Below, piece after piece: positions 4,841 to 20,926 of a stretch of DNA of 64,000 nt (position 1 is the first letter of the stretch; every line of letters begins with the position of its first letter). Under the pieces are notes generated by a model, which saw only the letters and a program-made list of their open reading frames with translations, was not told the DNA's origin and searched no databases. Source of the stretch: Patescibacteria group bacterium. GTDB lineage: Bacteria > Patescibacteriota > Patescibacteriia > PEXW01. The stretch covers positions 137,206 to 201,205 of the forward strand of contig JBAYJA010000001.1 in the NCBI GenBank assembly GCA_041665345.1. The letters are read 5' to 3'. Both the position numbers and the translations under genes were made by a program.

Positions 4841-5902
4841 GTGAGTATCACGATGAAAGACCATTTGCAGGGAAGCTTGCTGGGGGTTCGCATTGGCGAC
4901 GCACTGGGTATGCCGGTGGAAACCATGTCACCGGCAGAAATTTTAGCGGCTACGGATGGTAAAGGTGTAACGGGATTTTTAGATGCCATTCAGACAAAGT
5001 ATCCCGATCAAGCTATGCTCAAAAAGGGTGATCCAACCGATGACTGGCAGTTTAATCGGATTGTCGCTAAGTCGCTGATTGCTTGTAGGGGTTACAACCA
5101 AGCAGATATGGCGCGTCGGCACGTGGCTGAAAAAGACGTGAATATGATCGGCTGGGGGAAAACCACACGGTCGGCCACCATGGAATTGGCAACCTATTTT
5201 GCCAGCGGAGGCCAGTATGGTCGAGATCCGAACAATTTGCCCGAAGCTAAACCCGATTTTGGTGGCGGGAACGGCGTGGGTATGAAAGTATTTTCACTTC
5301 CCTCGGCAATCCTCGCCGCGGAATATGGTGCCCAGTACCGTTACCCAGAGTACACGTTGTTCCGTTGGGTCGAGCAGCTGACCATGTTAACGCATAGTCA
5401 TAGTGACGCATTTTTTACCGCGTACGCATTGGCGGTTGCGTTTGATGCTTGTGTTCGTGATGCAGTTTATACGTCATCGGATGCGCAACGGCTGCTCCAA
5501 AAAATCGATTTCGAACTTGCTAAAGTTGAAAATGCATCGCGCTATCGAGACGTAAGTGCAACACGCAAACAGATTGGCCGTCTGATGTATTGCATTGGTA
5601 ACCCCGGTAAAGTCACTGAAAATTTCCCTCCATATGGGTTAGCGATTCAGTCTGTACCCTTTGCTTTAGGCATTTTTCTCACCTATCCTGGGGATGCGCG
5701 GAAAGCATTGTTGACCTGTGTAAATGCTGGGTACGATTGCGACACCACGGCAGCCATGTGCGGCAGCCTCCTTGGCGCGAATGGGGGAGTGGAGGCATTC
5801 CCGGCAGAGTGGCGGAACTTCCGACCCGACTTCCAGGAACCGCTGGAGTTGGGCGAAAGATTGTACCAAGCTTTTGCTCGGACGTCCCAACAAACCTCGT
5901 AA
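4841..5902 (+). CDS. ADP-ribosylglycohydrolase family protein (DraG/ARH-like)
   Basis: G(VRI)GDALGMPVE near the N-terminus and CDTTAAMCGSLLGANGG near the C-terminus are the two hallmark Mg-binding motifs. GTG start is 5 nt after an AGGAG SD. Confidence 0.85.
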   Translation: MSITMKDHLQGSLLGVRIGDALGMPVETMSPAEILAATDGKGVTGFLDAIQTKYPDQAMLKKGDPTDDWQFNRIVAKSLIACRGYNQADMARRHVAEKDVNMIGWGKTTRSATMELATYFASGGQYGRDPNNLPEAKPDFGGGNGVGMKVFSLPSAILAAEYGAQYRYPEYTLFRWVEQLTMLTHSHSDAFFTAYALAVAFDACVRDAVYTSSDAQRLLQKIDFELAKVENASRYRDVSATRKQIGRLMYCIGNPGKVTENFPPYGLAIQSVPFALGIFLTYPGDARKALLTCVNAGYDCDTTAAMCGSLLGANGGVEAFPAEWRNFRPDFQEPLELGERLYQAFARTSQQTS

Positions 5903-7058: not shown

Positions 7059-7101
7059 TTATTCGTCAAATATAAAAATCAATACTTACAGGAGGTCTAT
7101 T

Positions 7102-7527: not shown

Positions 7528-7542
7528 GTTTTGAACCTATCA

Positions 7543-7706: not shown

Positions 7707-7735
7707 GCTTGACGGCTTTTGTGAGCGGGTTTACT
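7707..7735 (+). promoter_or_regulatory. promoter gggcTTGACG-17-TACTAT upstream of the NrtR gene
   Basis: The ORF track proposes a TTG start at 7703 that falls inside this promoter-like box. I interpret the box as a promoter. Confidence 0.45.
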
Positions 7736-7759
7736 ATGTGTATATCTTACACTAAGTAT

Positions 7760-8434
7760 ATGGCCAAGGTTGCTCGGAAGTACAAATTTGCAGTCATTGC
7801 CTCGGATGTCGTCATGCTGACCGTCCGCGATGGAAAGCTGGAAGTGCTTTGCATTCAGATGCAGAAAGCGCCGTTTATTGGGAAATGGGCCGTGCCGGGC
7901 GGGTTAGTGCAGCCAACGGAATCTGTGGACGAAGCCGCACACCGGATTTTGGCGGAAAAAGCCGGAATCCATGGGGTATACCTGGAGCAGCTGTACACCT
8001 TTGGCAAAGTGCGCCGGGATCCTTTTGGCCGCGTGGTTTCTGTGGCGTACTTCGCGCTGGTGCCCAGTGACGCACTCCGTCTGAAGACCACCAAGGAGTA
8101 CAAGGATGTGCAGTGGTTTCCCGTGAAGAAACTGCCTGGCCTGGCTTACGATCACGCAGACATTGTAGCCACGGCTGTGCAGCGCCTGCAGGCCAAGCTG
8201 GGATACACCAACATTGTGTACAGTCTGCTGCCAAAAACCTTTACCCTTTCGGAACTGCAGGGTATGTACGAAACGATTTTGGGAAAAACACTGGACAAGC
8301 GAAATTTTCGGAAAAAAGTCATTGGTTTAAAGCTGGTGAAGCCGGCAGGGGAGCAGCGGAAAGGCCAGGCTAGCCGGCCAGCGGAGCTGTACCGTTTTGC
8401 CGCCACTGAACTGAAGAAAGTGGAGATTCTCTAG
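7760..8434 (+). CDS. nrtR: NrtR-family regulator (Nudix domain fused to a C-terminal winged helix)
   Basis: Nudix signature GKWAVPGGLVQPTESVDEAAHRILAEKAGI. The C-terminal TLSELQGMYETILGKTLDKRNFRKKV is typical of the NrtR DNA-binding domain. Start set at ATG 7760 (MAKVARKYKFAVIASD). Confidence 0.75.
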   Translation: MAKVARKYKFAVIASDVVMLTVRDGKLEVLCIQMQKAPFIGKWAVPGGLVQPTESVDEAAHRILAEKAGIHGVYLEQLYTFGKVRRDPFGRVVSVAYFALVPSDALRLKTTKEYKDVQWFPVKKLPGLAYDHADIVATAVQRLQAKLGYTNIVYSLLPKTFTLSELQGMYETILGKTLDKRNFRKKVIGLKLVKPAGEQRKGQASRPAELYRFAATELKKVEIL

Positions 8435-8706
8435 CAAAATTTTTTACCTTCATATAAGTGTAAATAATACACTAACTATATGAGCCTTCTCACCCAATTC
8501 TTTGATGTCAACGTTATTTTACAGACTTCGGGTCAATCATGAGGAGATCTTCCCTGAAGGTGCTTTCTTCGTAGGCCGCACTAAGGAGCGGAGGAAGCAG
8601 TTTGAAGGAAGTTCTGCTCAAAACCAGCAGATTAGCTTCCAAAATTGTAAAGCACTTTGACAATTCGAAACCACCATAGAGTATCAAGAATATGTTTTTT
8701 GTGGGC

Positions 8707-8735
8707 TTGACAAATTGTTGAAAGCCTGGTAGAGT
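8707..8735 (+). promoter_or_regulatory. promoter gggcTTGACAaa-17-TAGAGT for the four-gene operon
   Basis: Consensus -35, 17-nt spacer, TAnnnT -10. About 100 nt upstream of the first gene. Confidence 0.55.
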
Positions 8736-8838
8736 GCTTTTTCTTAGAACTGAAGTACTGGAAGAGCTGGGGGCACTTTGAAAACCTAGAAATGAAACAA
8801 TTATTAATGAGATGAATGTTTTTTTGGGAAAGGAGAGA

Positions 8839-9669
8839 ATGATGATTGTGGAAGGCTTGTCAGGTCGCTACACACTAGGCACGCAAGTAGCAGAAACTGA
8901 GAAGTACCGGCTCTACCTTTGTAGAGAAGAAAGCACAGGCCAAGAGTGCTTGCTGCAGATAGCCACAGACAATCAGCATGATGGCACACTATGCCGTTCT
9001 GCTGTTCGGCTAGAAGTACTCAAACGTGCAGCCGATGCACTTGAAGCCGAGTATGAAAAGGTTCGTGAGAACCCTGAGATGCGGCTGAATTACGCCATTG
9101 GTTTCCCTGAGTTGATTGACAGTTTTCCTTGCATTCCGCAAGGTTCACGTCAGATCAATATCCTTGCATTTAGAAATGTTGAGGATGTGAGACACATGGT
9201 GCCGCTGTGTAATATTACTGTTCGGGATCACCTCCGGGTTGATTTTCGAACCAGTGCATGGATCATGGGGAAATTATTAAAGCTCCTGGTCTTTGCGCAC
9301 AGTCAGGGCATTGCGGTTGGACGGCTGGATAGCGCGAACATTTTGATTGAGCCAAAGCAGCACTACGTGTTGTTCTTTGACTGGTCAGAAGCATTTGTCT
9401 ATCCCGAAACTGTTCCGACGGAAATTGCCCGCCAGGAAATTGCCCAGGCCGCCAACGCGGTGATTACTGTTGTTGGAGGAAATCTGGAAACAAGAACTTT
9501 CCCGGACGACGGCGATACTGCGCAAGATCGCTACACGGATTTTTTGCTGCAGCTGGCTGACGGACGTCAGCGGGATGCACAGCAGGCGCACACGGAATTC
9601 TACAAGCTCGTTGATGAGCTCTGGAAACGTGAGTATTACGAATTCACCACGCTACCCGTACACACGTAA
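8839..9669 (+). CDS. protein-kinase-like fold protein (divergent, possibly a pseudokinase)
   Basis: AHSQGIAVGRLDSANILIEPKQHYVLFFDWSEAF aligns with the kinase catalytic-loop/DFG region (HxxGIxHRDLKPxNILI...DFG). The N-terminal GRYTLGTQVAETEKYRLYL resembles a Gly-rich loop. The canonical VAIK Lys and HRD Asp are not conserved. Start at ATG 8839 follows an AAAGGAGAG SD. Confidence 0.55.
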   Translation: MMIVEGLSGRYTLGTQVAETEKYRLYLCREESTGQECLLQIATDNQHDGTLCRSAVRLEVLKRAADALEAEYEKVRENPEMRLNYAIGFPELIDSFPCIPQGSRQINILAFRNVEDVRHMVPLCNITVRDHLRVDFRTSAWIMGKLLKLLVFAHSQGIAVGRLDSANILIEPKQHYVLFFDWSEAFVYPETVPTEIARQEIAQAANAVITVVGGNLETRTFPDDGDTAQDRYTDFLLQLADGRQRDAQQAHTEFYKLVDELWKREYYEFTTLPVHT

Positions 9670-9690
9670 ACACAGGAAGGAGTTTGATTC

Positions 9691-10809
9691 ATGGGAAAAG
9701 AAACTTTCTCACGAACCACGTACAGCAAATCGTACGCGAAATTCGCGTCAAAAGATGGTCCGGCAACGTCAAAGGCTGAGCAAACAGCCCACAAAACTGG
9801 TAAGCTGAATCCGCTTGTTGATCCGCAGGGATTTGGCGTGATTCGGCGTTCACTGCTTCGTCTGGAGCAGCTCCCAAATAAACTTTGGGAAGTGACCGTC
9901 GGAAGTCCACTCCCTATCGAAACCCGAGTCGACACGACCGGCAGCATGGGGCATAACGTTGATATTGCTTTACGGGTTCTTCCGAATGCATTTGAGCAGA
10001 TCAGCGAGGTAACCCCGGGCTACGATCAGCAGGTTGCCACCGGTATTTTTGGTGACGTGCAGGACCGGTTTGTCCTGTGCCGTCCGCAGTTTGAAATGGT
10101 TGCGGAGAAAATCGTTGAGCAGCTAACCTTAATGGTTCCTGAGCGAGCCGGTGGTGATGCTGACGAAGATCCGCACTACGGCCTATTTGGAGCCGCTTAC
10201 CTGGTTGCCGCGTACATTAATCGGATCGGTCTGAAAAGGTACGATTTCACTGCTTCTGATGCGTCAGCGCGTGATCGACTTGATGAAAGTCAACTTATCC
10301 GAATATTCGGACCCGACGTTTTCGCCAAGGTCGCCGAAAATGGGCATCAAATGCGCGCCGATGATCTCCCCACAACAGCTGATGTTGTGCAAGATCTCCT
10401 CAAACGCGCACATGCCTTTTTCCTGCAGGTTGGCGACAATTCGGAGACCACCAGATTCTGGACAAGAATCTACGGTCGCGAACGCGTGGTCATTCTGCCA
10501 AGCACCGAGCTAATGCCTCAGGTGCAGGCAACGATCATTGGACTGACCGAAGGAACACTCGATCTGAAAGATGTGCCGGCATTCCTGAAGAAGCACAATG
10601 TGCAATTGGGGGATGCTGAGAAAATCGCCCGTTCGGTTGCCAATATTCCAATTGGCGCACAAGCCGCGTTGCCGAATTTTTCCAAGCGTCCCAAGAAGGG
10701 TGACCTCTTCCGTGAGAAGACCGACCTTTGGCCGGTTGATCCACAGGAGCTTGGAAAAGCTAAGCCCCATAAGGCAAAGCCAGGCGACAAAAAGACTGAA
10801 TGGCTGTAA
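9691..10809 (+). CDS. von Willebrand factor A (vWA) domain protein
   Basis: RVDTTGSMG MIDAS (DxSxS-like) motif after a beta strand. A later GGD segment is present. AGGAAGGAG SD 7 nt upstream. Confidence 0.6.
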   Translation: MGKETFSRTTYSKSYAKFASKDGPATSKAEQTAHKTGKLNPLVDPQGFGVIRRSLLRLEQLPNKLWEVTVGSPLPIETRVDTTGSMGHNVDIALRVLPNAFEQISEVTPGYDQQVATGIFGDVQDRFVLCRPQFEMVAEKIVEQLTLMVPERAGGDADEDPHYGLFGAAYLVAAYINRIGLKRYDFTASDASARDRLDESQLIRIFGPDVFAKVAENGHQMRADDLPTTADVVQDLLKRAHAFFLQVGDNSETTRFWTRIYGRERVVILPSTELMPQVQATIIGLTEGTLDLKDVPAFLKKHNVQLGDAEKIARSVANIPIGAQAALPNFSKRPKKGDLFREKTDLWPVDPQELGKAKPHKAKPGDKKTEWL

Positions 10810-10836: not shown

Positions 10837-12228
10837 GTGATGATGACGAACAAAGTCTACGTTGTCACCGATCTCGGTCCAGGAGACGGTGGCAAAGGTG
10901 GTGTGGTGCACAAAATCTCCACGATGCAGTGCGCGCATACCATTATTAAAGTCGGCGGTGCGCAGGGAAGCCACGGTGTCTGCACCTCGCAGGGTGAAAG
11001 CTTTGCTTTCAGCCAGTGGGGTTGCGGGACGCTGGAAGGGGTGAAAACACACATCTCCTCAGAGATGGTTGTCATGCCCGAAGGTTTACTGAATGAAGCT
11101 GATACCCTGCGCTACAACTGTGGAGTGCACAATGCCTTTGATCTCCTCACGGTTGATGAAAGTGCGCTGTGCGCCACACCCTACCATGGTATTGCCTCAC
11201 GCCTGAAAGAGATGGCGTTGGGCGACCACCCGCGTGGAACCATTGGTACCGGCGTTGGCGAAGCGTTCCGCATAGCGGAACGCATGCCAGAGCTCGCACT
11301 ATACGTTCGTGATCTTTCACGAGCGCATTTGCGACAAAAATTAGCTGACTGCAGAGAGCAAATCCGTTCCGATCTTGCAGGAGTGATGCGCGGGGAATTT
11401 TCCGGTGCTGACCAGGAAGCTGCGCAGCAGGAAATGCATCTTCTGTATGATGATGATTTCCTGACGTATGTCTTCCAACGCTTCCAAACAGTTGGGAAAC
11501 GGGCAACAATTGTTGATCCTGGCTATCTTGGGAGGGAGATTCTCTCGCAAGACGGAGTAGCAATCGTGGAGAAATCCCACGGGGTGCTCACTGATCGCTA
11601 TCATGGTTTTCATCCCCATACCAGCGCTATTCGGACATTGCCATGCTTTGCCGAAGCAATGTTGAGGCGCGCTGGCTATGGCGGAAGTATTATCCACCTT
11701 GGTGTTACTCGGGCATACCAGATTCGCCATGGAGCCGGACCCATGCCAACTGCTGATCCAGCAATGGCAGAACACTTGCTTCCGGGTAGTCACAAGGAGG
11801 AGAATCGTTACCAAGGCAAGATTCGCGTTGGTCCGCTGGATCTTGTCCTGCTTCGCTACGCCCTAGCAGCCTGTGGAGGTCCAACCGCTTTCGATGGCCT
11901 TGCCGTCACGTGGTTTGATCAAATACAGGCAAATGGTGCTTGGCACCTGTGCGATGGGTACGAGGGCAGTATTGGGCAAGACTTTTTCACACCCCTGGGT
12001 GATATAAAAGTCCGGCACGGCAATGATGCGAACCAGCTTGCGTACCAAGAAGCTTTGGGGCAGCACCTCTTGTGCTGCACGCCCAAGCTGCAAACTGTCC
12101 ACTTTTCACCAACCGAAACGCGAGACAATTTGTTCGCGCTTTGTGCTGGTGTGTTACAAGAAAAATTAGGCATTACAACCAGAATGATCTCGTTTGGGCC
12201 AACTGAACGAGACAAAACGTGCAAGTGA
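10837..12228 (+). CDS. adenylosuccinate-synthetase (PurA) family paralogue, divergent
   Basis: P-loop VVTDLGPGDGGKGGVV (PurA GDEGKGK). GGAQGSHGV (PurA GGHNAGHT). HPRGTIGTGVGEAF (PurA TTGRGIGPAY). TRAYQIRHGAGPMPT (PurA GSGPFPTE). Overlaps the next gene, so translational coupling is likely. Confidence 0.8.
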   Translation: MMMTNKVYVVTDLGPGDGGKGGVVHKISTMQCAHTIIKVGGAQGSHGVCTSQGESFAFSQWGCGTLEGVKTHISSEMVVMPEGLLNEADTLRYNCGVHNAFDLLTVDESALCATPYHGIASRLKEMALGDHPRGTIGTGVGEAFRIAERMPELALYVRDLSRAHLRQKLADCREQIRSDLAGVMRGEFSGADQEAAQQEMHLLYDDDFLTYVFQRFQTVGKRATIVDPGYLGREILSQDGVAIVEKSHGVLTDRYHGFHPHTSAIRTLPCFAEAMLRRAGYGGSIIHLGVTRAYQIRHGAGPMPTADPAMAEHLLPGSHKEENRYQGKIRVGPLDLVLLRYALAACGGPTAFDGLAVTWFDQIQANGAWHLCDGYEGSIGQDFFTPLGDIKVRHGNDANQLAYQEALGQHLLCCTPKLQTVHFSPTETRDNLFALCAGVLQEKLGITTRMISFGPTERDKTCK

Positions 12229-12248: not shown

Positions 12249-13247
12249 ATGTCAGGAGAAACCCTTGATCCGGTAACTGCTAAACTTCGCGAACTTGGCG
12301 TTGACGATGCAACGATCGGAAAAATTAAAGATGATCTCGGCGCGACGAGTGTTGAAGATCTTGCCGGTCTGACCGAAGCCGATCTCATCGGTACGGGCAT
12401 GAAGGTTTTGCAGGCAAGAAAATTACTTGCCGCGCTTGCCCCTACCGCCTCGCCTACTGCTGATCCTACCGCTGAATTAGCCGAAGGTGAGCAGCCTTCC
12501 AAAGCGCAGGTGAGTGGCTTTGCTGGCATGCTTGGCGCTGATCCTACCGCTCTGCTCCTGCTCATGAGCGGTAAGGGTGGTGATATGGATCTTACATCCA
12601 TGATATCTATTGCTAGCCTGGTCAACGGGTATAATCCCAAACGCCGAGACTTGTACTTGACGGTTATGGGTCAGGTTGAAGGTCGGCTTGGATTACCCAT
12701 TGTTGTTATCGACGGCGATGGCAGCATCAACCGCGAACTTACCATCGAGTACATTGAAGGACTCGAGGAAGGACGTGATTCTGCCGAAAACAACATCTAT
12801 TTCGATTCAACCGGCTCGCCGCATGAAGTCATTCGCGTTGGTGTTGATGCACAGAGCATCTACGACGCTGATCCGTTGAATCCAAGTCGGGCACTGCAGA
12901 AGAGTGGTATGGGTATTGGTCGCGTGAATTGGACCAACGTACCGCTGGAAGTTCGTCAGGTCGCATACTATGCGGTCACCAAAACGGGTGAAATCGACCC
13001 GAATAATGATGCGCATCAGTCGTGGCTCCGTGACAAAATGAAACCAGGCTCAACTCGTCTGGTCTTTCATGGGCAGGCTCCACGTGCAATCAGCGAATTC
13101 AACGAAGCGGCTCGTACTGGTTCGTTACCAACACTTCGGGTCATGCTTTCGCGTGGTCCGCGCCGTCCGGAGTTTATGCCGCGTCGCCGTCGATCATCGC
13201 CAGCCGACCTTACCGGCATTGGCGGACGTCGAGACGATGACATCTAG
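12249..13247 (+). CDS. hypothetical protein with N-terminal tandem HeH/SAP-like helix-hairpin motifs and an Arg-rich C-terminus
   Basis: LRELGVDDATIGKIKDDLGATSVEDLAGLTEADLIG resembles Rho-N/SAP/LEM HeH repeats. An Ala/Pro linker and an unknown C-terminal domain follow. ATG 12249 sits 6 nt after a GCAGGAGGA SD. The in-frame GTG 12219 overlaps the PurA-like stop. Confidence 0.5.
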   Translation: MSGETLDPVTAKLRELGVDDATIGKIKDDLGATSVEDLAGLTEADLIGTGMKVLQARKLLAALAPTASPTADPTAELAEGEQPSKAQVSGFAGMLGADPTALLLLMSGKGGDMDLTSMISIASLVNGYNPKRRDLYLTVMGQVEGRLGLPIVVIDGDGSINRELTIEYIEGLEEGRDSAENNIYFDSTGSPHEVIRVGVDAQSIYDADPLNPSRALQKSGMGIGRVNWTNVPLEVRQVAYYAVTKTGEIDPNNDAHQSWLRDKMKPGSTRLVFHGQAPRAISEFNEAARTGSLPTLRVMLSRGPRRPEFMPRRRRSSPADLTGIGGRRDDDI

Positions 13248-13280
13248 TCGTTAATCGTTCCTTTTTCCACTTTGGTGGGG

Positions 13281-13309
13281 TGGCCAGAAAGCATTACGCT
13301 TTCTGGCCA
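13281..13309. terminator. bidirectional terminator hairpin tggccagaaagc-attac-gctttctggcca
   Basis: Perfect 12-bp stem flanked by T/A runs, between convergent genes. Confidence 0.8.
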
Positions 13310-13315
13310 TTTATT

Positions 13316-15286
13316 TTACTTGATTTTTGGCAAGAATACCCGGTTCGCGTAGAGTTGGGTTGCTAGCTGGCGGTAGCCCGAATCCCAGAAGGTGCTCTGC
13401 CCGTCAATGCGATCAGCGTGTGGTGTTTGGATGCCGCCGTGTGCAGGAAAGAATCGTTCATAGCCCTTGTGCATCAAGCGGTACTGGAGGGTGTCGCGTT
13501 CCAGTTCTTCAATGTACAGTCCCCGCGCTTCTCGCCCATGCAGAGTTTTCTGCGTGTCATACATATACGGTGTTAGCAGTTTTTCGCGCAGTTCGCGAAT
13601 CTCGCTGGCGTTTCCTTCCCAGGCCGCGCCAAAGAGAATATGTGTCCAAGAGCTTTCGCCCAGGGATACTTCAGGACTGTTAAAGTCCTGTACACCTAGA
13701 CCCCCTTTCGTTTCCTCAAGCCAGAATGCAACAACATCACCCTGCAGGTGATTTTGGGTAAAAGTTTCTTTCAGCTGCTTCTGCAGTTTTTCGTGCTCAC
13801 TTGGGGCTACCCCTGGCCGCACGAAGACGCCGGTATCCACATCCGCACCGTTAGCGCCGTAACCCTTCAGCCGTGAACCGAAAAGCAATACCACCGGGTA
13901 GAGTTTTTGCGACAGTTCTGGGTTTGCTTCAATGGCCGCCACAATGTTCTGGGTGTCCTGCACCTCTGCTTTCAGCTCTGAGAGGTTCTTAGAAAACGGT
14001 CCGGCGAGCGCAGGGACGGAAATATCCAGCGCTTCAAGCTCCGACGTTGTAATAAGTTGTAGGCCATGGAGACGGAAGAAAGTTTTTTCTAGCTCCTCAT
14101 GTACTGCTGGCGCAGCTGTGTGCCAGAGAGCGGTGAGCGTATCCTGGTAGCGCTCAAAGAGCACCTGCGCTGCTTGGGGGTTGGTTCGTGTGATTGCTTC
14201 AATAGCCTTGCGGATGCCGTTGATGGCTGCTTGCTGGCTTTCTACGCTGGCCTTCGGGTCAAAATACTCCTCAAGGGTGTGCTGATTGAGTGCTCCATTG
14301 GCGATTGCAGTTTGTAGGGCATCCCCAAGCGTTTCCAGAATTTTGCGTTTTTTTTCGCGTGTTAGCCACGCTTCCCGTTTCTTGGTCATACCCGTGTACG
14401 TCTCAGCGTCAATTTGCTTAAATGCATTTTGGATTGTTTCTTGCAATGCGGAAGGGGATAGGGTTGATGCTGTTGTAGTTTCTTGCTTCTCTGAATGTTC
14501 AGAGGGTATAGAAATTTCTAGCGTCACGTTTCTGACAAAAGCATTGGAAGATGCATGCATTGCTTTCAGCTCTGCCTCATGAAGAAGGCCCAGATCTGCC
14601 AAAACCGGTAGCGTGTCTGCAATGCTCTGTTGCAGCGTTTCATCGTCACTAGATTCCAGAAGCTCCACCACCTCCTGGGTTGTCATGAGATTCCGCTCAA
14701 CGAGTTTGGGAATCAGGTGTGCAGCTTTCACAACCCGTGGTAGATCTCCCGCTCGTGATTCCACATCCAGTACGTCGCCGTCAACAAAGTTTGCCCGGAC
14801 ATCGTGCACCGACAAAAGTTTCTCCCACGCCCTACTGTACGCCTGGCGGAATTCCTCCGTAGCCTGTTGCAGCGCTGGAGAGTCTGGTTCCCAGGTCTTT
14901 GGCGGTAAAAATTCAAAGGGGAGGTAGAGTGCTATCCGTTGGTAATCCTCATCTTCAAGCAGGTATTGCAGTGAAGTGTAGAGTTCCGCCACTTCTGCCT
15001 CAGGAATGTTGCCGTTGGCCACTGCTTCTTCCAATGGAAGATCTGGCCGAGGCAGACGAGAGATGACTTCTTGCAACCTTTGATTCAGTTGCCGGCGCGA
15101 TTCAACCTGATTCTGGAATGCCTCATTTTTGGTGACATGGTCAGGCCAGACCTCTGCCGCATGAGCAAGATCCAGGAAGGATTCCACTGCCGGAGGGGCA
15201 ATAGGGTATCCTTCAGCTCGTTCATGTTCTCGTTTGTAGCCTTCATGGTTCATGTACGTAGCATAAAGTGAATACTCAAAACACAC
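13316..15286 (-). CDS. large protein with a C-terminal Pol-beta-type (minimal) nucleotidyltransferase domain
   Basis: LLFGSRLKGYGANGADVDTGVFV matches the GS-x9-13-DxD NTase motif at about residues 455-480 of 656. The 450-aa N-terminal region is helical and acidic, with no motif I recognise. Confidence 0.6.
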   Translation of the reverse strand: MCFEYSLYATYMNHEGYKREHERAEGYPIAPPAVESFLDLAHAAEVWPDHVTKNEAFQNQVESRRQLNQRLQEVISRLPRPDLPLEEAVANGNIPEAEVAELYTSLQYLLEDEDYQRIALYLPFEFLPPKTWEPDSPALQQATEEFRQAYSRAWEKLLSVHDVRANFVDGDVLDVESRAGDLPRVVKAAHLIPKLVERNLMTTQEVVELLESSDDETLQQSIADTLPVLADLGLLHEAELKAMHASSNAFVRNVTLEISIPSEHSEKQETTTASTLSPSALQETIQNAFKQIDAETYTGMTKKREAWLTREKKRKILETLGDALQTAIANGALNQHTLEEYFDPKASVESQQAAINGIRKAIEAITRTNPQAAQVLFERYQDTLTALWHTAAPAVHEELEKTFFRLHGLQLITTSELEALDISVPALAGPFSKNLSELKAEVQDTQNIVAAIEANPELSQKLYPVVLLFGSRLKGYGANGADVDTGVFVRPGVAPSEHEKLQKQLKETFTQNHLQGDVVAFWLEETKGGLGVQDFNSPEVSLGESSWTHILFGAAWEGNASEIRELREKLLTPYMYDTQKTLHGREARGLYIEELERDTLQYRLMHKGYERFFPAHGGIQTPHADRIDGQSTFWDSGYRQLATQLYANRVFLPKIK

Positions 15287-15532: not shown

Positions 15533-16081
15533 ATGGGAAACCGTGCGCACATCACCATCGATGTGCAGAATGACTTTTGCCCTGAGGGAAGACTTGCGGT
15601 TACTGCGGGTGATGAAGTTGTACCCGTCATTAACCAGCGGGTGAAGAATCCTGCTTATAAACGCAAGTACAATTCCCGTGATTGGCATCCGCCCGGTTCG
15701 GAGCATTTTAAGAAATGGCCGACGCACTGTGTGGAAAAAACTTTGGGTGCAGCCTTTCATCCGGATTTGGATCTCACAGACGCAGTGATTATTACCAAAG
15801 GTCAAGACCCGGCGCTCGATGGTTACAGCGCCTTTGAGGGTACGACGTCCTGGGGAGCAATGCTGGAAGATGATCTTCGCGCACATGGAATCACCGACAT
15901 TGACATCGAAGGTTTGGCTACTGAATATTGCGTGAAGAAATCTGCTATTGATGGAGCCAAACGTGGTTTCAACGTTACGGTGTACCTCGATGGCTGCCGG
16001 GCAGTGAATATCAAGCCGGGCGACGAAGAAGCAGCGATTGTCGAAATGCGTGCCGCCGGCGTCAACGTTGTGGCCGCCTAA
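15533..16081 (+). CDS. pncA: nicotinamidase/pyrazinamidase (isochorismatase family)
   Basis: ITIDVQNDFC...RDWHPPGSEHF...TEYCVKKSAIDG fits the Asp/Lys/Cys triad pattern. AGGAGG SD. Confidence 0.75.
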   Translation: MGNRAHITIDVQNDFCPEGRLAVTAGDEVVPVINQRVKNPAYKRKYNSRDWHPPGSEHFKKWPTHCVEKTLGAAFHPDLDLTDAVIITKGQDPALDGYSAFEGTTSWGAMLEDDLRAHGITDIDIEGLATEYCVKKSAIDGAKRGFNVTVYLDGCRAVNIKPGDEEAAIVEMRAAGVNVVAA

Positions 16082-16161
16082 GCATAAACCGCTCATTCGC
16101 ACTTGGAGGTACGCGTTCAACTCGCGTACCTCCACCCAAAAAATTTCTTTTAGAGCTTTGT

Positions 16162-16232
16162 GACAGTCACCTGACTGTCCCATTCCTCTGGTCATAACAT
16201 AAGGTTGTGGCCTTGCACTTTCAGAAATACAC
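16162..16232 (+). promoter_or_regulatory. regulatory module copy 1: 8-2-8 palindrome gacagtca-cc-tgactgtc, 6 nt, then a 47-nt conserved element ctctggtcataacataaggttgtggccttgcac...
   Basis: Recurs at 16638-16708 with the same spacing, directly upstream of the next gene. The element can form a 9-bp RNA hairpin ggucauaac/guuguggcc using G-U pairs. Confidence 0.55.
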
Positions 16233-16255
16233 ATTCAATCAGAACGAGGTGAAAC

Positions 16256-16570
16256 ATGGTAAACGTACAAGCCTTTGAGTTGCGGAAGTTGATTCCCGAA
16301 CTTGAGGCACAACTCAAGCAAGCGAGACAAGCGCTTGAAGCGATTGAAGCACGGTGCTCGCATAGCTGGGGCCCAGTACAGTACGACCCCATCGAGCATG
16401 CTGCATATCACATTCCCGGCGACCCGCCGGAGTTTAGCGGCGCAGATCATCGATTTCCAATGGACGTGCCCGCCCGAACCGAGAAACGTTGGCGACGGGA
16501 TTGCATCCATTGCGGAAAACCAGAATACACAAACCATACAAAACCTGCTGGGGAAGAGCCAGTGTTCTAA
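16256..16570 (+). CDS. hypothetical small protein (Cys/His-rich)
   Basis: 104 aa. CSHSW...CIHCGKPEY. SD gaggtg upstream. Confidence 0.5.
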   Translation: MVNVQAFELRKLIPELEAQLKQARQALEAIEARCSHSWGPVQYDPIEHAAYHIPGDPPEFSGADHRFPMDVPARTEKRWRRDCIHCGKPEYTNHTKPAGEEPVF

Positions 16571-16637
16571 TGGATGTTGTGGGTGAAGTATGTGCTTGTT
16601 TGTGCATACTTCACCCCTTTCTCATGAAGAGACGAGA

Positions 16638-16708
16638 GATGATTATGTGATCATCTTCTATCTCTGGTCATAACATTAGGTTGTGGCCTTGCACCTTAAG
16701 AAAATGAA
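16638..16708 (+). promoter_or_regulatory. regulatory module copy 2: palindrome gatgatta-tg-tgatcatc, 6 nt, then the conserved element ctctggtcataacattaggttgtggccttgcacc...
   Basis: About 90% identical to copy 1 over 47 nt. A partial third copy (tgcaccttgaaaacatg) lies at 18256-18285 upstream of the Nudix/pncB genes. Confidence 0.55.
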
Positions 16709-16731
16709 TTTCATCCGAAAGTGAGGATACA

Positions 16732-18132
16732 GTGAAAGTCATCATGTATGGCTTAAGCGCTAATCCGCCTGGGATACACCATCGTTTATTGGTGCAGGAA
16801 ATGGCGAAGTATGCAGACCTGGTCATTGTGGTGCCGTGCGGTTTACGGCCGGACAAGTTGACCACGAATGATATCCCGCCGTTGTACCGTGCAGCAATGA
16901 CCGACATGACCTTTCAGGACATTCCAAATGTATGCGTGGATCTGTCTGACTTAGAACGATCAGTATTCACGCGAAGTTGGGAGTTGTTGCAAAGGTATGA
17001 GCGAGAATATCCTGGAGCGGAACTTTGCTTGGCAGTTGGTGGCGATCTTATTGCCAACGGTCGCTATGGTGAGTCAGCCATTCACCGCAAGTGGGAGCAG
17101 GGGAAAACACTGTGGGAAAATGCAAACTTCATTGTTTGCAATCGCCTGCACACTCCCTTTGATCCTGTGGATCTACCCCCACACTGCCAGTTTGTGCATG
17201 TAGACCTTGTCGGTTCCAGCACAGACATTCGGGATCGCGTGTTCGGACACAAACCAATTACCGGTTTGGTGATGCCGAGCGTGGAGACCTACATTCATCG
17301 GTACAATCTGTACCGGGGCATGATGGCGGCCACAACCGCGAAGCATGCCAGCTTAGATAATCCTCGCCTGCTCATACTGGCAGATGCTGAGACGCCACGA
17401 GCAATGGCAATCGCTTCGCAGTTCGCGCGGTTTGAGGATGCTGAAAATCCAAACGGCATTTTGGTCTGTGGCGGTGATGGCATGATGCTGCAAGCAATTC
17501 GGCAGGAGTGGCGCCGACGTTTGCCCTTCATCGGCATGAATGCTGGCCATTGGGGGTTCCTCATGAATAGCTTCGAAGAAATCACCGCAATGGATCACGC
17601 CTTTGATGACCTCTCTTTTGTCCAGTCGCCCATGCTGTACGTGGAGTCAGTGCGGCCAGATGGAACCACGGCAAATGCCTTGGCGTTCAACGACTGCTGG
17701 ACGCATTCGCAGAACAATGGGCAAGCAGCGAAATCTGAGGTTCGCGTGAACGGCAGAGTCTGCCTCAAGTCCGTGGTGTCAGATGGCATGCTGGTGAGTA
17801 CGGCCGCGGGATCAACCTCGTATGCGCGGGCAATGGGCGCTATGCCACTTCCGGTGGGCTCGAGTCAGCTTATCCTCGTGGGCAGCAATGTGTTTTCCCC
17901 CTTTGGGTGGCGGCCAGCGTACCTGCCAATTACCGATCGGATTTGCATCCGAACTTTGGAACCGGAGAAGCGTCCGGTAGATGCATTTGTTGATGGTATT
18001 TCCTTTGGGCAAACCATGCAGCTCGATGCCCGAACCAGCAATATTGCTTCCGTGGAAATTGGATTCTTCGGCGCACACGATTTGCAGGAGAAGATCCGCG
18101 CAATTCAGTTCGTTGAGCAGTATCTTCAATAG
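16732..18132 (+). CDS. bifunctional fusion: nicotinate/nicotinamide-mononucleotide adenylyltransferase (NadD-like) N-terminal, NAD kinase (NadK) C-terminal
   Basis: The N-terminus MYGLSANPPGIHHRLL matches the (H/T)xGH nucleotidyltransferase motif of NadD. The C-terminus has GGDGMML (NAD kinase GGDGT motif), NDxW and TAAGSTSYARAMGA (NadK GSTAYS motif). It is a single 466-aa ORF. Confidence 0.8.
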   Translation: MKVIMYGLSANPPGIHHRLLVQEMAKYADLVIVVPCGLRPDKLTTNDIPPLYRAAMTDMTFQDIPNVCVDLSDLERSVFTRSWELLQRYEREYPGAELCLAVGGDLIANGRYGESAIHRKWEQGKTLWENANFIVCNRLHTPFDPVDLPPHCQFVHVDLVGSSTDIRDRVFGHKPITGLVMPSVETYIHRYNLYRGMMAATTAKHASLDNPRLLILADAETPRAMAIASQFARFEDAENPNGILVCGGDGMMLQAIRQEWRRRLPFIGMNAGHWGFLMNSFEEITAMDHAFDDLSFVQSPMLYVESVRPDGTTANALAFNDCWTHSQNNGQAAKSEVRVNGRVCLKSVVSDGMLVSTAAGSTSYARAMGAMPLPVGSSQLILVGSNVFSPFGWRPAYLPITDRICIRTLEPEKRPVDAFVDGISFGQTMQLDARTSNIASVEIGFFGAHDLQEKIRAIQFVEQYLQ

Positions 18133-18302
18133 TCGCACTTTCCATTGTGCGGGGGCATGGTTCTACTCCATGCCCCCCGCATATTCCTTCAAAGCTTTGC
18201 AACGAACTTGGTTGGTTGCAGCGCTTTCATCCAGAAATAGTTCTGGGTGATGCACCTTGAAAACATGCAAGCAAATGAACATATATTTGAGAAAGGAACA
18301 TT

Positions 18303-18917
18303 ATGGTACAGCCAAAAGTGCGACCGCAAGGCAGTTTCGCCTTGGAGACTGTTGATATCAATGGTCGAAATTGGTCGGTGCTACACGCTTCAGACTCAGC
18401 CGGTTTATTGGTCTTTCTGAAAGATCGTAATGCCATTGTGCTGGTCCGGCAGCAGCGTGCGCCCATGGTTTCTGCACACAATCCGGAAGGTTCGATTACG
18501 GAACTTCTCGCTGGTCGGTTCGACAAAGACGAGACGCCAATCCAGTTGCTGGTTCGCGAGGCTTCAGAGGAAGCTGGAATCGCCATTGATGCCAGTCAGA
18601 TCAAAGTACTCAACTTTGGTCACCCGCTTGCCCTCTCAGCCGGCATTATTGATGAACTATGCTGGATTGGTTACGTGGAAATTTCCGATGACCAAATTGA
18701 CCCCAGCGGTAAGCTTTACGGACTGCACGAGGAAGGAGAGTTCATTGACCGGATCATGATTCCGGTTGAGCAACTTGAATCCCTGGTTTGTGAAGATGCT
18801 CGTGTCTTCGGCATGATCCAGTGGTTCCTGCGTTGGCAAATGGAACACCGTCTGCAAGCATTAACAGACCAGCTGGAGAAATTCGAACGCGAGATGAACG
18901 AAACGAAAACGATTTGA
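18303..18917 (+). CDS. Nudix hydrolase, likely ADP-ribose pyrophosphatase
   Basis: Nudix box GRFDKDETPIQLLVREASEEAGI. Sits between nadD-nadK and pncB. Confidence 0.7.
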   Translation: MVQPKVRPQGSFALETVDINGRNWSVLHASDSAGLLVFLKDRNAIVLVRQQRAPMVSAHNPEGSITELLAGRFDKDETPIQLLVREASEEAGIAIDASQIKVLNFGHPLALSAGIIDELCWIGYVEISDDQIDPSGKLYGLHEEGEFIDRIMIPVEQLESLVCEDARVFGMIQWFLRWQMEHRLQALTDQLEKFEREMNETKTI

Positions 18918-18926
18918 AGGGAGTGA

Positions 18927-20195
18927 TTGAAGGTGCTTACAACACGCTTTATTCGAAAAGATGAGGCGATCATCCAGTCGTTGCTTGACGTGGACTTCTA
19001 TAAGTTCACGATGAGCCACTTCATTTGGAAGTACTACCGGGACGTCGAGGTAACCTTCGGGATGAAGAACCGTACGAGTCACGTTCGCCTCGCGGAAATT
19101 ATTCCAGAAGGAGCTTTACGTGAGCAGCTGAACTACGTCCGGGATTACCTCAGATTCAACTTGAGTGAAATTTTTTACATGCGAGGTATGGATATCTACG
19201 GGAAGAACATGTTTTCGGAGGATTACCTGGATTTCCTGAAGGCACTCGCCATGAGTGATTATCAGTTACGCGTGGTTGATGGTCAGTTTGATCTACGCTT
19301 CACTTGTCTTTGGCCGGCCGTTACTTTCTGGGAGACAATTTCGCTGGCGATTGCCAACGAGTTGTACTACCTAGAAATCCTGAAGGAAGAAACTCGGTTC
19401 GATCGACAGGCAATCTATGCCGAAGGTATCAAGCGACTCCACGAGAAAATAAAAAAACTCAAGGAGCACCCTGACCTAACATTCATCGAGTTTGGTACAC
19501 GCCGGAGATTTGGCCGAGTTTGGCAGCGCGATGTCGTCTGTGCGTTAGCCGAAGAATTACCACCGACGCAATTCCGTGGTACGTCAAACACAAAGTTGGC
19601 GTTTGACCTTGGCTTAGTTCCCATGGGTACCAACGCGCATGAACTGCAAATGGTAGTTGGCGCCCTCGCTAAGGACGATGCTGCACTTCTGGCTTCCACT
19701 GACAAAGTGCTTGATCAGTGGTGGGAGTTGTACGGTTACGGTCTCTCTATCGCGCTACCGGACACTTTTGGCTCCGATTTCTTCTTTCAAACATTTGGTG
19801 AAGAGCGAGCAAAGAAGTGGAAAGGTGTGCGGGAGGACTCCCGTGATCCGTTTGTGGGCGGCGAGCAAGTTATTCAGTACTACCAGAGTCTAGGTATTGA
19901 CCCCAAGACGAAGCTCTGGTTGCCGAGTGATGGTTTAGACATTCAGAAGATCATCGCGCTTCACAATCAATTTTGTAACCGCATCGGCCTGTCATTTGGC
20001 TGGGGCACAACCCTCACGAATGATCTCGGTTTACCCACGCTCTCTCTTGTCGCCAAGACAATTGAAGCGAATGGCCGACCGTGTGTGAAGCTTTCGGACA
20101 ATTTGGCCAAGGCCATGGGTCCGAAAGATGAAGTCGAACGGTATAAACGCGTATTCGGCTATACGAATACGCATACCGAAGAGTGCAAAGTCTGA
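18927..20195 (+). CDS. pncB: nicotinate phosphoribosyltransferase
   Basis: 422 aa with NAPRTase-family motifs (FGTRR...; LPDTFGSDFF; VREDSRDP). TTG start is 4 nt after an AAGGGAG SD. Confidence 0.85.
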   Translation: MKVLTTRFIRKDEAIIQSLLDVDFYKFTMSHFIWKYYRDVEVTFGMKNRTSHVRLAEIIPEGALREQLNYVRDYLRFNLSEIFYMRGMDIYGKNMFSEDYLDFLKALAMSDYQLRVVDGQFDLRFTCLWPAVTFWETISLAIANELYYLEILKEETRFDRQAIYAEGIKRLHEKIKKLKEHPDLTFIEFGTRRRFGRVWQRDVVCALAEELPPTQFRGTSNTKLAFDLGLVPMGTNAHELQMVVGALAKDDAALLASTDKVLDQWWELYGYGLSIALPDTFGSDFFFQTFGEERAKKWKGVREDSRDPFVGGEQVIQYYQSLGIDPKTKLWLPSDGLDIQKIIALHNQFCNRIGLSFGWGTTLTNDLGLPTLSLVAKTIEANGRPCVKLSDNLAKAMGPKDEVERYKRVFGYTNTHTEECKV

Positions 20196-20327
20196 TTTGC
20201 TTGCATGGTATGTACATTCCGGTGGGAGATTTCAACTATCTCCCACCCCTCATTCTAGTTATGCAAGAGTTTGGATAATTGAAGTGAGGAAAACTGATCA
20301 TTATAAACATATTGCACAGGAGGAAAA

Positions 20328-20807
20328 ATGCGCGTCGTATACTGGCTTGAAACCTTTCCACCACCGAGTGACAAATCAATTTTTTTAGCCGGACCTACGC
20401 CACGGCATGAAGGAGTGCAAACCTGGCGTCCAAAGGCGCTGGAAACGTTGGAGCGGCTTGGGTATGACGGCGTGGTCTTTGTACCTGAGTATCGTAACGG
20501 CCAGTTGCCAAAGGTGGATATGGCAGCGTATACGGATCGGATTGACTGGGAAACCAGTGCCCTTGCGCGGGCTCAAGTTATTGCCTTCTGGGTACCACGT
20601 GTACTGGAGACCATGCCAGCCTTCACGACCAATATCGAATTTGGTGAATGGTTCAAGTCCGGCAAAATTGTTCTGGGTACGCCGCCAGAAGCGCGGAAGG
20701 TAAGTTACATGCGTTACCGCGCTGGTCAACATCTGGTGCCGCTGGCAGAAACGTTGGAAGACACGCTGAAACTGGCTTTGCGGAAGCTGGGCGATCTTGC
20801 AAAGTAA
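20328..20807 (+). CDS. nucleoside 2-deoxyribosyltransferase-like (Rossmann) protein
   Basis: IFLAGPTPR ... VIAFWVPR ... TNIEFGEW resembles the NDT/YtoQ family pattern. AGGAGG SD. Confidence 0.5.
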   Translation: MRVVYWLETFPPPSDKSIFLAGPTPRHEGVQTWRPKALETLERLGYDGVVFVPEYRNGQLPKVDMAAYTDRIDWETSALARAQVIAFWVPRVLETMPAFTTNIEFGEWFKSGKIVLGTPPEARKVSYMRYRAGQHLVPLAETLEDTLKLALRKLGDLAK

Positions 20808-20926
20808 AAAGGTTCTTTCGGTGGAGAAGCATTTCTCCACCGTTCCCTCCAGCATCCCACAAGTAGTGGGGGATTGGAGGGAAAGAAAAAAGTTAATTAA
20901 AAACTCAATAGAGAAAGGACATAGTT

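Follow-up and report, generated by a model that had tools for sequence, protein, structure and literature searches.

A PurA-like protein encoded with a vWA-fold partner in candidate phyla radiation bacteria and large phages is probably not a conventional adenylosuccinate synthetase

Introduction

Here, we describe an open reading frame (ORF) at positions 10837 to 12228 of a 64,000-nucleotide stretch of DNA, referred to as the window, from a Patescibacteria group bacterium (assembly GCA_041665345.1, contig JBAYJA010000001.1, positions 137,206 to 201,205). The encoded protein is PurA-like: it belongs to the superfamily of adenylosuccinate synthetase (AdSS) and, together with its relatives in other bacteria of the candidate phyla radiation (CPR) and in phages, it is encoded next to a protein with a predicted von Willebrand factor A (vWA) fold. 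We lean towards the view, drawn from sequence comparison, that the ORF encodes an active member of a vWA-coupled branch of the PurA superfamily, which is neither a true AdSS nor a PurZ and which would depend on GTP and on a nucleophile other than aspartate. With greater assurance, we regard it as probable that the enzyme is not a conventional AdSS.

Results

The ORF belongs to the AdSS superfamily

Membership of the ORF in the AdSS superfamily is beyond doubt. The Pfam family PF00709 (Adenylsucc_synt) matches the window protein with 111.6 bits (E 5.2e-32), and a profile of the clade described below aligns with E. coli PurA (1ADE) over the full length (residues 6-463) with 194 bits. Yet the protein is only 25% identical to E. 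coli PurA and scores below the cut-offs of both PurA equivalogs of NCBIfam, with 81.1 bits versus 402 for NF002223 and 68.8 bits versus 395.6 for TIGR00184. The initial annotation of the ORF, made from the letters of the DNA, had called it a divergent PurA-family enzyme, and these scores bear out that description. Translation from the GTG codon yields 463 residues, whereas public records place the start at the ATG two codons downstream, which yields 461.

The GTP site is retained while the aspartate loop is replaced

Functional PurA positions were read against E. coli PurA in an alignment of 279 sequences. Of these, 81 belong to the CPR group (79 from CPR species loci, two from CPR-like IMG/VR contigs), 62 come from viral contigs of IMG/VR, and 134 are representatives at 50% identity; the window protein and E. 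coli PurA, whose numbering is used unless the window protein is named, complete the set.

G12, D13, K16, G17, H41, G127, G274, R306, and G416 are retained in both the CPR and the viral sequences and, among the representatives, in 88% or more; D13 is the catalytic base and H41 the catalytic acid. D13 is an Asp in every CPR and viral-locus sequence as well as in 123 of the 134 representatives, and D13, K16, and H41 are all kept in 81/81 CPR-group and in 24/24 triad-linked phage sequences. T128 and T239 stay Ser or Thr across the clade, the RxGAGP motif is preserved, and position 224 is Gln or His. With T128, T239, and the motif, much of the cradle for the nucleoside monophosphate is retained. 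The guanine readers D333 and S414 are kept in the CPR group, in the triad-linked phages, and in the representatives; in about half of the remaining viral homologs, which are not triad-linked, position 333 is an Asn. The window protein accordingly retains the P-loop residues G16, D17 (D13), K20 (K16), and G21, further His46 (H41), Thr135 (T128), the motif R297-H-G-A-G-P, Asp361 (D333), and Ser452/Gly454 (S414/G416). D361 and S452 are kept, but K331 is replaced by Trp; GTP is the likely nucleotide of the PurA-like enzyme, as far as residue conservation can tell.

Substrate contacts, in turn, are altered. In E. coli AdSS, L-aspartate is held by T300, T301, R303, R305, and R131, while N38, T129, and R143' hold the 5'-phosphate of inosine monophosphate (IMP). 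Across the clade, the aspartate loop T300-T301-G-R303-R-R305 is replaced by R-[W/Y]-Q-G-x-[V/F], and the individual changes are the same throughout: A299 is deleted, T301 becomes Trp or Tyr, G302 Gln, R303 Gly, and R305 Val or Phe. In the window protein, the loop reads N323-R-Y-Q-G-K-I-R330, so that T300, T301, R303, R305, and R131 correspond to R324, Y325, G327, I329, and T138, with one residue deleted. The dual role of the lost R303 in PurA has been restated (PMC8342488). R131 is replaced by Thr, Met, or Val across the clade. Among the contacts to the IMP 5'-phosphate, N38Q is invariant, T129 is changed to Ile or Val in CPR bacteria and to Cys in phages, and R143 is not conserved. Moreover, V273H is invariant, and K331 is exchanged for Trp, His, or Cys, Trp being found in the window protein. 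Q224H, L228T, D21H, G40S, and T42G occur as additional changes in the CPR group only. The window protein carries the signature of the clade with Q43, H298, Y325-Q326-G327, and I329, equivalent to Q38, H273, [W/Y]301-Q302-G303, and a hydrophobic residue at 305. Judged from this alignment, GTP binding and phosphoryl transfer are strictly constrained, whereas the aspartate site has turned into a pocket that is aromatic and uncharged, and the nucleotide site is remodelled at its phosphate end. Because the replacements are themselves strongly conserved, the pattern fits a change of substrate rather than decay.

The initial annotation had drawn attention to three substituted motifs of the window protein, GDGGKGG (residues 16-22), GGAQGSHGV (40-48), and GTIGTGVGEAF (134-144). 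All three are present and pair with GDEGKGK, GGHNAGHT, and GTTGRGIGPAY of E. coli PurA in HMMER and MAFFT alignments, and the substitutions are fixed clade-wide rather than peculiar to the window gene. They reflect real divergence; however, E14G and K18G are changes of the P-loop and not of substrate contacts, and the list omitted the most informative changes, namely the aspartate loop T300-R305 and V273H. The broader statement that GTP-binding elements are retained while substrate contacts differ is supported by the 279 sequences, and the IMP and aspartate contacts are not conserved under any placement of gaps, neither with HMMER nor with MAFFT. The suggested neofunctionalisation is consistent with this pattern and gains strength from the residue table, as an interpretation of sequence.

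The clade carries no hallmark of PurZ

The best PHROG match of the window protein is phrog_1211, which is labelled '2-aminooxy adenylosuccinate synthetase', and RefSeq uses the same name for the mycobacteriophage homologs. Taken at face value, these labels point to a PurZ-type enzyme that would form the precursor of Z (2-aminoadenine) from dGMP for a Z-DNA genome. PurZ is recognized by a Ser in place of Asp13 of PurA (S23 in S-2L, S14 in phiVC8); in addition, it has an ATP/dATP-type pocket with Asn or Gln at Asp333, a length of ~340-370 residues, and an archaeal-type origin, it keeps the aspartate-binding loop, and it is encoded together with DatZ, MazZ, or DpoZ (PMC8342488; 10.1101/2025.10.22.683976). 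None of the 279 sequences has the PurZ Ser at position 13. The guanine-specifying D333 is kept in the window protein (D361) and across the CPR group, and the 461-residue protein lacks the archaeal-type deletions. In line with this, the clade profile scores only 35 bits against phiVC8 PurZ (6FM1) and 23 bits against S-2L PurZ (7ODX), compared to the 194 bits for 1ADE. DatZ, MazZ, and DpoZ are absent among the called genes within 10 kb on each side of the ORF in the window and in an 11-kb region around the gene of phage Rizal, and the window gene is located on a bacterial chromosome. Diagnostic residues, profile scores, and neighbourhood thus rule out PurZ for practical purposes and identify the PurZ-type labels of phrog_1211 and RefSeq as misleading. 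The precedent of PurZ, invoked in the initial annotation, holds in principle only: PurZ, a phage-borne PurA homolog of altered substrate specificity, shows that the fold can be retargeted (PMC8342488), but the present clade is an independent offshoot of the long, bacterial-type PurA.

The divergent signature is tied to a vWA partner gene

Partner genes were counted with profile HMMs built from 41-42 members per family in 80 CPR species-representative loci and 65 IMG/VR loci. A vWA gene is located next to and upstream of the PurA-like gene in 79/80 CPR loci, a gene for a predicted pseudokinase is present in 75/80, and genes for a SAM-like protein and for a nucleotidyltransferase (NTase) are present in 73/80 each, most CPR loci that miss a partner being contig ends. 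In 52 of the 65 viral loci, the PurA-like gene is immediately preceded by a gene for a vWA homolog, and a pseudokinase gene is found in 26/65. The universal core is the pair of vWA and PurA-like genes, to which the pseudokinase is a frequent addition, while the SAM-like and NTase genes are additions of CPR bacteria.

Partner and active-site signature go together. Viral proteins with the divergent signature (Q38, H273) have a vWA gene within 3.5 kb in 46 cases and farther away in the locus in four, with two cases that could not be evaluated. In contrast, viral PurA proteins with the canonical signature (N38, V273, R303), which are 49% identical to E. coli PurA, have a vWA gene in none of the eight evaluable loci. 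The reverse search, starting from the vWA partner, led to a PurA-like gene directly downstream in eight of nine viral loci; in the remaining one, the contig breaks off with the vWA gene. The triad of kinase-fold, vWA, and PurA-like genes recurs in Mycobacterium cluster C phages, in the order known from CPR bacteria, and in jumbo-phage contigs. In phages of the Rizal/Bxz1 type, the gene order is the 'kinase' gp250, gp251 of the vWA family, the small gp252, and the PurA-like gp253, for which the phage annotators use the names 'serine/threonine kinase', 'hypothetical protein', and 'PurA-like adenylosuccinate synthetase'. Finally, a natural fusion of the PurA-like protein with the HEAT-NTase protein exists (P0161, 1,129 residues; L157, 3421-6810). 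Its gene is directly preceded by pseudokinase and vWA genes, and no SAM-like gene was detected in this locus. Based on the linkage counts, the match between signature and partner, and the fusion, we argue that the proteins act as one unit, and we infer that the partner proteins form a complex with the PurA-like enzyme.

This linkage also bears on a rival explanation, according to which the ORF encodes a divergent but genuine AdSS that converts IMP, L-Asp, and GTP for purine salvage and whose neighbours are functionally unrelated. CPR bacteria depend on salvage, public records name the gene adenylosuccinate synthetase, and the full-length homology to PurA, the retained D13, K16, H41, and GTP readers, and the one invariant Arg of the RRRR run agree with such a role. 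We nevertheless consider it unlikely in view of the equivalog score of 81 bits against a cut-off of 402 and of the replacement of T300, T301, R303, R305, and R131, which is alike in more than 270 sequences. Furthermore, the divergent signature tracks the vWA partner, which phage PurA of canonical signature lacks, a natural NTase fusion exists, PurB is missing from the 64-kb window, and an additional, impaired AdSS would be of little use to phages whose hosts already own PurA and PurB.

A five-gene cassette in CPR bacteria

The gene order is the same in the window and in three further CPR contigs, with products of ~275 residues, ~372 residues, the PurA-like protein, ~330-400 residues, and finally ~645 residues, the last gene usually being convergent (Table 1). 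The gaps between the four co-directional genes of the window are ~20-27 nucleotides; the vWA gene ends 27 nucleotides before the PurA-like ORF. A hairpin with a T-tract between the two convergent genes is likely a shared terminator that closes the cassette.

Table 1. Coordinates of the PurA-like ORF, its cassette, and neighbouring features in the window
Feature	Position	Strand	Remarks
PurA-like enzyme ORF	10837..12228	+	463 aa from GTG; probable start ATG 10843
vWA-fold partner	9691..10809	+	372 aa; motif D81-T-T83-G-S85; AF2 model, Foldseek
Protein-kinase-fold partner	8842..9669	+	275 aa (alternative start 8812, 285 aa); profile, motifs
SAM/HhH-like partner	12249..13247	+	332 aa; helical C-terminal part; CPR-specific; Pfam
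HEAT-like repeat protein with C-terminal MNT-type Pol-beta nucleotidyltransferase	13316..15253	-	~645 aa; CPR-specific
Promoter-like site	8707..8735	+	TTGACA-17-TAGAGT with TG extension; ahead of the pseudokinase/vWA/PurA-like/SAM-like operon
Hairpin	13278..13312	.	15-bp stem and T-tract; between the convergent SAM-like and NTase genes
NrtR-type regulator	7736..8434	+	NUDIX sensor domain and NrtR winged helix; directly upstream of cassette; Pfam NrtR_WHD 1e-24, NUDIX 7e-18
ADP-ribosylglycohydrolase	4841..5902	+	Context gene upstream of NrtR; recurs near the cassette in ~6 CPR loci
NAD salvage cluster	15533..22588	+	Context, outside the conserved cassette
PncA-type isochorismatase	15533-16081	+	
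Atypical NAD-kinase-like gene	16732-18132	+	
NUDIX gene	18303-18917	+	
NAPRTase PncB	18933-20195	+	
Nucleoside 2-deoxyribosyltransferase-like gene	20328-20807	+	
Glutamine-dependent NadE	20927-22588	+	

The 372-residue partner is annotated as 'hypothetical' everywhere. It belongs to no Pfam family, a profile search against the PDB gave nothing significant, and Pfam searches with individual members returned weak VWA_4 matches only. Since these sequence-profile searches remained without significant result, its fold was assigned by structure prediction. The AF2 model (pLDDT 84, pTM 0.86) finds its best Foldseek matches in integrin beta I-like/vWA domains (E 1e-6, probability 1.0), and D81, T83, and S85 of the metal ion-dependent adhesion site (MIDAS; D-x-T-x-S) are invariant among the homologs. 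According to the model, the partner is a vWA-fold protein with an intact MIDAS-type motif.

The 275-residue partner resembles CK2 alpha in a profile search against the PDB (E 1e-7) and matches phrog_3043, 'kinase'. The Asp of its HRD motif is replaced by Arg in CPR bacteria and by Ala in phages, and the beta3 Lys is a Gln in the window copy, while the DFG-like Asp is kept; the protein is therefore predicted to be a pseudokinase. A presumably dead, scaffold-like kinase, combined with the loss of the aspartate site, invites the alternative that the PurA-like protein no longer ligates anything but serves as a GTP-driven switch or chaperone, with the vWA protein as adaptor to a target protein. vWA proteins of known systems are typically adaptors for NTPases. 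The analogy would be to SIMIBI-class GTPase metallochaperones and to MoxR-vWA pairs, as described in PMC7824862. However, residues needed only for chemistry on a nucleotide substrate in the site (D13, H41, T128, T239, RxGAGP, and Q/H224) are invariant, and the active site of the NTase partner is intact, which suggests an enzymatic pathway, so that a pure switch seems quite improbable.

The remaining two partners are specific to CPR bacteria. The window copy of the SAM/HhH-like protein is a short variant of a family that ranges from ~330 to 400 residues and usually has ~390. Pfam assigns SAM_TNK to 37 of 41 members and HHH_5 to 16 of 41, and a profile search against the PDB gave no informative match. 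The NTase partner combines AlkD-like, HEAT-like helical repeats in its N-terminal part with an intact catalytic motif, G459-S460 ... D471-x-D473. Since SAM/HhH domains and HEAT-like repeats could bind nucleic acid, the enzyme might instead modify a 6-oxopurine (G or I) within DNA or RNA. This idea, which we consider highly unlikely, draws on the HhH-like and AlkD-like HEAT repeat domains of the partners, on the lost contacts to a free 5'-phosphate (T129, R143; N38Q), and on two phage lineages in which a polynucleotide kinase gene or a Thg1-like tRNA repair gene lies nearby.

The five cassette proteins have no match in PADLOC-DB v2, which speaks against a known defence system; the NUDIX domain of NrtR weakly matches one candidate model.

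Distribution and phylogeny

An exhaustive HMMER search of 1.84 billion representatives recovered 1,299 clusters (50% identity representatives) at E <= 1e-30 and 3,108 at E <= 1e-10. Hundreds of homologs are found in CPR bacteria, all ~461 residues long and 60-71% identical. They come from genomes of Saccharimonadia, Paceibacterota, and Uhr-, Falkow-, Moran-, Wildermuth-, Davies-, and Spechtbacteria, and identity at this level across CPR classes indicates strong constraint on the sequence. Among isolated phages, the nearest relatives are found in ~200 myoviruses of Mycobacterium cluster C (Bxz1-type), whose 'PurA-like' genes reach 33% identity; further homologs occur in phages of Rhizobium, Vibrio, Listeria, Salmonella, Staphylococcus, and Enterococcus. 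At the DNA level, no similarity to phage records was found. In a neighbour-joining tree, the vWA-linked proteins form one clade, separate from E. coli PurA and canonical viral PurA, and the CPR proteins are a monophyletic branch within it.

Two cases among the IMG/VR contigs deserve separate mention. The 408-kb contig L161 carries the full five-gene cassette of the CPR type (4082-10626), with the NTase gene co-directional instead of convergent. The contig is classed as viral and would be a megaphage of CPR-like descent, unless the classification is wrong and it belongs to a CPR bacterium. Gut-type phage contigs (L121-L153; e.g. L121, 9082-11107) encode a separate vWA-linked sub-branch of ~370 residues; with its D333N and K18L changes, it may depend on ATP instead of GTP. 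Its neighbours include genes for LemA protein and for a Thg1-like tRNA repair enzyme, but no NAD genes.

An ADP-ribose-sensing regulator adjoins the cassette in independent lineages

In the window, the cassette is directly preceded by a gene for an NrtR-type regulator, whose Nudix catalytic box is degenerate (RILAEK). NrtR proteins sense ADP-ribose (reviewed in PMC9503650), and the window copy is a probable regulator of the cassette. When neighbouring genes are clustered without bias, NrtR (16 loci) ranks behind the five cassette genes only, ahead of NadE, ADP-ribosylglycohydrolase, and PncB with 5-6 loci each; the remaining clustered neighbours represent lineage synteny. NrtR occurs in 16 of the 80 CPR loci, usually abutting the cassette at one of its ends, immediately before the pseudokinase gene or immediately past the NTase gene. 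These 16 loci represent 12 lineages, defined by PurA-like proteins less than 70% identical, which corresponds to a binomial P of 5e-12 versus an expectation of 2%, the chance of a single-copy gene to fall into a 20-kb locus of a ~1-Mb genome. This adjacency, repeated across many independent lineages, makes it probable that expression of the module responds to ADP-ribose/NAD status.

In one Paceibacterota genome (L003), the cassette is inserted between NrtR-NadB-NadA and NadE-NadK-NUDIX-NadD-PncB-PncA. On the jumbo-phage contig L094 (407 kb), genes for NrtR, vWA, PurA-like, and Pkinase-like proteins are consecutive, and an NDT-like gene is nearby. The NrtR-type protein of this contig (8222-8998; NUDIX and NrtR wHTH) has an intact Nudix box, RELREE, unlike the window copy, and may both hydrolyse and sense ADP-ribose. 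In Rhizobium phage RHph_TM61 (203 kb; L159, 918-6900), genes for HAD, ComF-like PRTase_3, NUDIX, and HIRAN proteins lie within 5 kb upstream of the vWA and PurA-like pair. The pairing of phosphoribosyltransferase (PRTase) and HAD genes recalls the 'nucleoside-like metabolite' modules of the Ter type.

This context raises the possibility that the module rebuilds NAD+ or a precursor, for instance from GTP-phosphorylated ADP-ribose and nicotinamide or nicotinate, or by amidation of a nicotinate nucleotide, as a PurA-based analogue of the NAD+ reconstitution pathways that phages carry (10.1101/2024.02.11.579819; PMC13464706). The initial annotation had listed NaMN among the nucleotides to assay, a mention of interest given the NAD cluster around the gene. 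In CPR bacteria and jumbo phages, no other extra neighbour is as frequent as NrtR, the window cassette is located amid PncA, PncB, NadE, and NUDIX genes, the L003 cluster adds NadA and NadB, and the aromatic, uncharged pocket (W/Y301, V/F305) in place of the aspartate site would suit such a reaction. On the other hand, a purine lactam is the substrate indicated by the conserved Asp13 base and nucleoside-phosphate cradle, only a minority of loci has an NAD link and one phage branch has none, the cluster already has NadE and PncB, and there is no chemical precedent within the fold. Moreover, the described pathways NARP1 (Adps and Namat), NARP2 (Nampt and Nmnat), and NARP3 (PnuC and NadR) share no component with the cassette, the NAD+/ADP-ribose regulatory theme alone being alike through the adjacency of NrtR (10.1101/2024.02.11.579819; PMC13464706). 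Such a rebuilding of NAD+ or a precursor appears distinctly improbable.

Further features around the cassette and in the window

The region 4841-8434 (+) just upstream of the vWA cassette encodes an ADP-ribosylglycohydrolase, two small unknown proteins (234 and 141 residues), and NrtR. This arrangement resembles the neighbourhoods of ADP-ribosylglycohydrolase, Nudix-type transcription factor, and vWA that are predicted to counter viral ADP-ribosylation (PMC9503650, section 3.8). Near-identical terminator hairpins, AAGGAGTCG[C/T]TTCGGCGACTCCTT, follow two consecutive small genes upstream of NrtR (6974-6997 and 7542-7565, +), which suggests a local duplication or a reused terminator module.

In a search for an NrtR operator or riboswitch linking the cassette to the NAD genes, scans of intergenic regions yielded just promoter and terminator elements plus one unexplained repeat of 31 nucleotides, and Rfam detected only the single tRNA-Asn of the window. 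The repeat, CTGGTCATAACAT[A/T]AGGTTGTGGCCTTGCAC, occurs twice (16188-16218 and 16664-16694, +), where zero copies are expected by chance, and has no Rfam match. Its copies precede a 104-residue ORF and the 466-residue NAD-kinase-like gene, and it may serve the NAD cluster as a common operator, promoter, or leader RNA. The 466-residue protein itself (16732-18132) shows weak, partial matches to NAD kinase (E 1e-5 and 2e-3) and a long, unassigned N-terminal half, and may thus differ from a standard NadK.

The window has ~51% G+C and a gene content typical of CPR bacteria, with the NAD salvage cluster, Suf genes, a Cu-ATPase, an AMP/thymidine-phosphorylase-type gene, and pentose-phosphate genes. 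The phosphorylase-type gene (45161-46666, +; Glycos_transf_3 and PYNP_C, 499 residues) is followed further downstream by RpiB, Rpe, FBA, and PfkB, an ensemble that fits the nucleoside-to-pentose salvage route of CPR bacteria. Three tandem ORFs of 69 residues each (24221-24430, 24434-24643, and 24737-24946, +), without a Pfam family, adjoin genes for Cyt-b5, PepSY_TM, Fe/Mn superoxide dismutase, and ferric reductase. Another ORF without Pfam match (53938-56037, +; 699 residues), situated between genes for a Cu-transporting P-type ATPase and DsbA-like proteins, coincides with the strongest AT skew of the window (+0.19 at 54001-56000).

Discussion

Taking the PurA-like protein as an active enzyme with a non-aspartate nucleophile, we envisage a first step in which Asp13, as the base, would act on the lactam N-H of a purine-type nucleotide while GTP phosphorylates its oxo group, and a second step in which a nitrogen nucleophile other than free L-aspartate would displace the phosphate. 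No gene for purine interconversion, including PurB, is present in the 64-kb window, and no PurB was found in the 20-kb loci either, the search having covered the window and these loci. Since no lyase is encoded with the cassette, a stable N6-substituted adenylate would result or, should the nucleophile be ammonia as in CTP synthase, an AMP-like product. Supplying or holding the second substrate, or regulating the enzyme, would be the part of the vWA protein with its MIDAS site, of the pseudokinase and, in CPR bacteria, of the NTase and SAM/HhH proteins. The module as a whole would be switched on by, or serve, ADP-ribose/NAD-linked nucleotide metabolism in organisms that use host nucleotide pools.

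Specific substrate proposals draw on context. As a tentative suggestion, which we rate as possible rather than probable, a C6-activated purine nucleotide might be coupled to a non-aspartate amine, either a metabolite or an amine of a protein or peptide bound at the vWA MIDAS, to yield a stable N6-substituted adenylate that is made in response to ADP-ribose/NAD status. If so, CPR bacteria and large phages would possess a new nucleotide derivative or covalent nucleotide tag, which in CPR bacteria would be processed further by the fused or adjacent NTase.

Several points weigh against our interpretation. The pocket geometry is deduced from a sequence alignment, which includes a one-residue deletion in the aspartate loop. 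R330, aligned with R306 of PurA, is invariant, so that a carboxylate could be bound and aspartate or another amino acid could still be the substrate. Retention of D13 and H41 could partly reflect ancestry instead of current catalysis. The loci are phylogenetically not fully independent, even though the NrtR link still spans 12 lineages, and some 'viral' IMG/VR contigs with a full five-gene cassette (L090, L161) may be CPR fragments. With regard to NAD, the association with NAD/ADP-ribose genes is seen in only ~20% of the CPR loci plus some phage lineages; one further CPR genome has the cassette outside any NAD context, and the most divergent gut-phage branch shows no NAD-type neighbours. In addition, k-mer and palindrome scans of 11 intergenic regions of the window revealed no operator common to cassette and NAD genes.

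Compared to E. coli PurA (1ADE/1GIM), the fold, the length class, the P-loop, Asp13, His41, Asp333/Ser414, and RxGAGP are alike, and the chemistry is probably shared. The differences lie in the replaced aspartate loop and R131, in three changed contacts to the IMP 5'-phosphate, in V273H and K331W, and in the vWA partner that is always encoded. PurA homologs of the ToyG type, known from deazapurine nucleoside antibiotics, also act on a nucleotide other than IMP. Their clusters contain a phosphoribosyltransferase and a HAD phosphatase, similar to the PRTase_3, HAD, and NUDIX genes beside the Rhizobium phage pair. ToyG-type pathways include an adenylosuccinate lyase homolog, however, and presumably use aspartate, whereas neither a lyase nor an aspartate loop is seen here; moreover, we know of no vWA partner for ToyG-type proteins. 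That a nucleophile other than an amino acid is feasible is illustrated by CTP synthase and dethiobiotin synthetase, SIMIBI-class amidoligases from different families of a related P-loop class. In these enzymes, the NTP phosphorylates a carbonyl oxygen and an amine displaces the phosphate, ammonia in the case of CTP synthase. The latter obtains its ammonia from a fused glutaminase, which the cassette does not encode.

The partner architecture, in which a MIDAS-containing vWA protein is genomically tied to an NTP-using enzyme and a kinase-fold protein, is reminiscent of MoxR-vWA and of TerY-P (vWA, kinase, and PP2C); systems of this kind have been described (PMC7824862, PMC7159879). In contrast to these systems, the NTPase has the PurA fold and not the AAA+ fold, the kinase lacks the catalytic Asp, and no PP2C phosphatase is present. 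Literature searches found no paper that describes a vWA-coupled PurA-like module, and PurA is not mentioned in the Aravind-lab surveys of jumbo phages and of viral NAD/ADP-ribose systems. This suggests that the well-known superfamily comprises a new functional branch whose partner architecture has not been reported for the PurA fold.

The analysis defines a third functional branch of the PurA superfamily, which comprises ~1,300 clusters at 50% identity, has a fixed but different pocket for the second substrate, as predicted from the residue replacements, and has an obligate vWA partner. The labels currently in use ('adenylosuccinate synthetase', 'PurA-like', and PurZ-type) put wrong purine-salvage steps into metabolic reconstructions of CPR bacteria and false calls of DNA modification into phage genomes. 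As more than 200 isolated Mycobacterium cluster C phages carry the triad, the question is testable in engineerable phages of M. smegmatis. CPR bacteria, which live as episymbionts, share the branch with large lytic phages, which are host-dependent as well, and its genes recurrently come under an ADP-ribose-sensing regulator. This placement is suggestive, given that NAD+/ADP-ribose metabolism is central to the conflict between phage and host, and the module may represent a hitherto unrecognised nucleotide transformation tied to NAD/ADP-ribose status.

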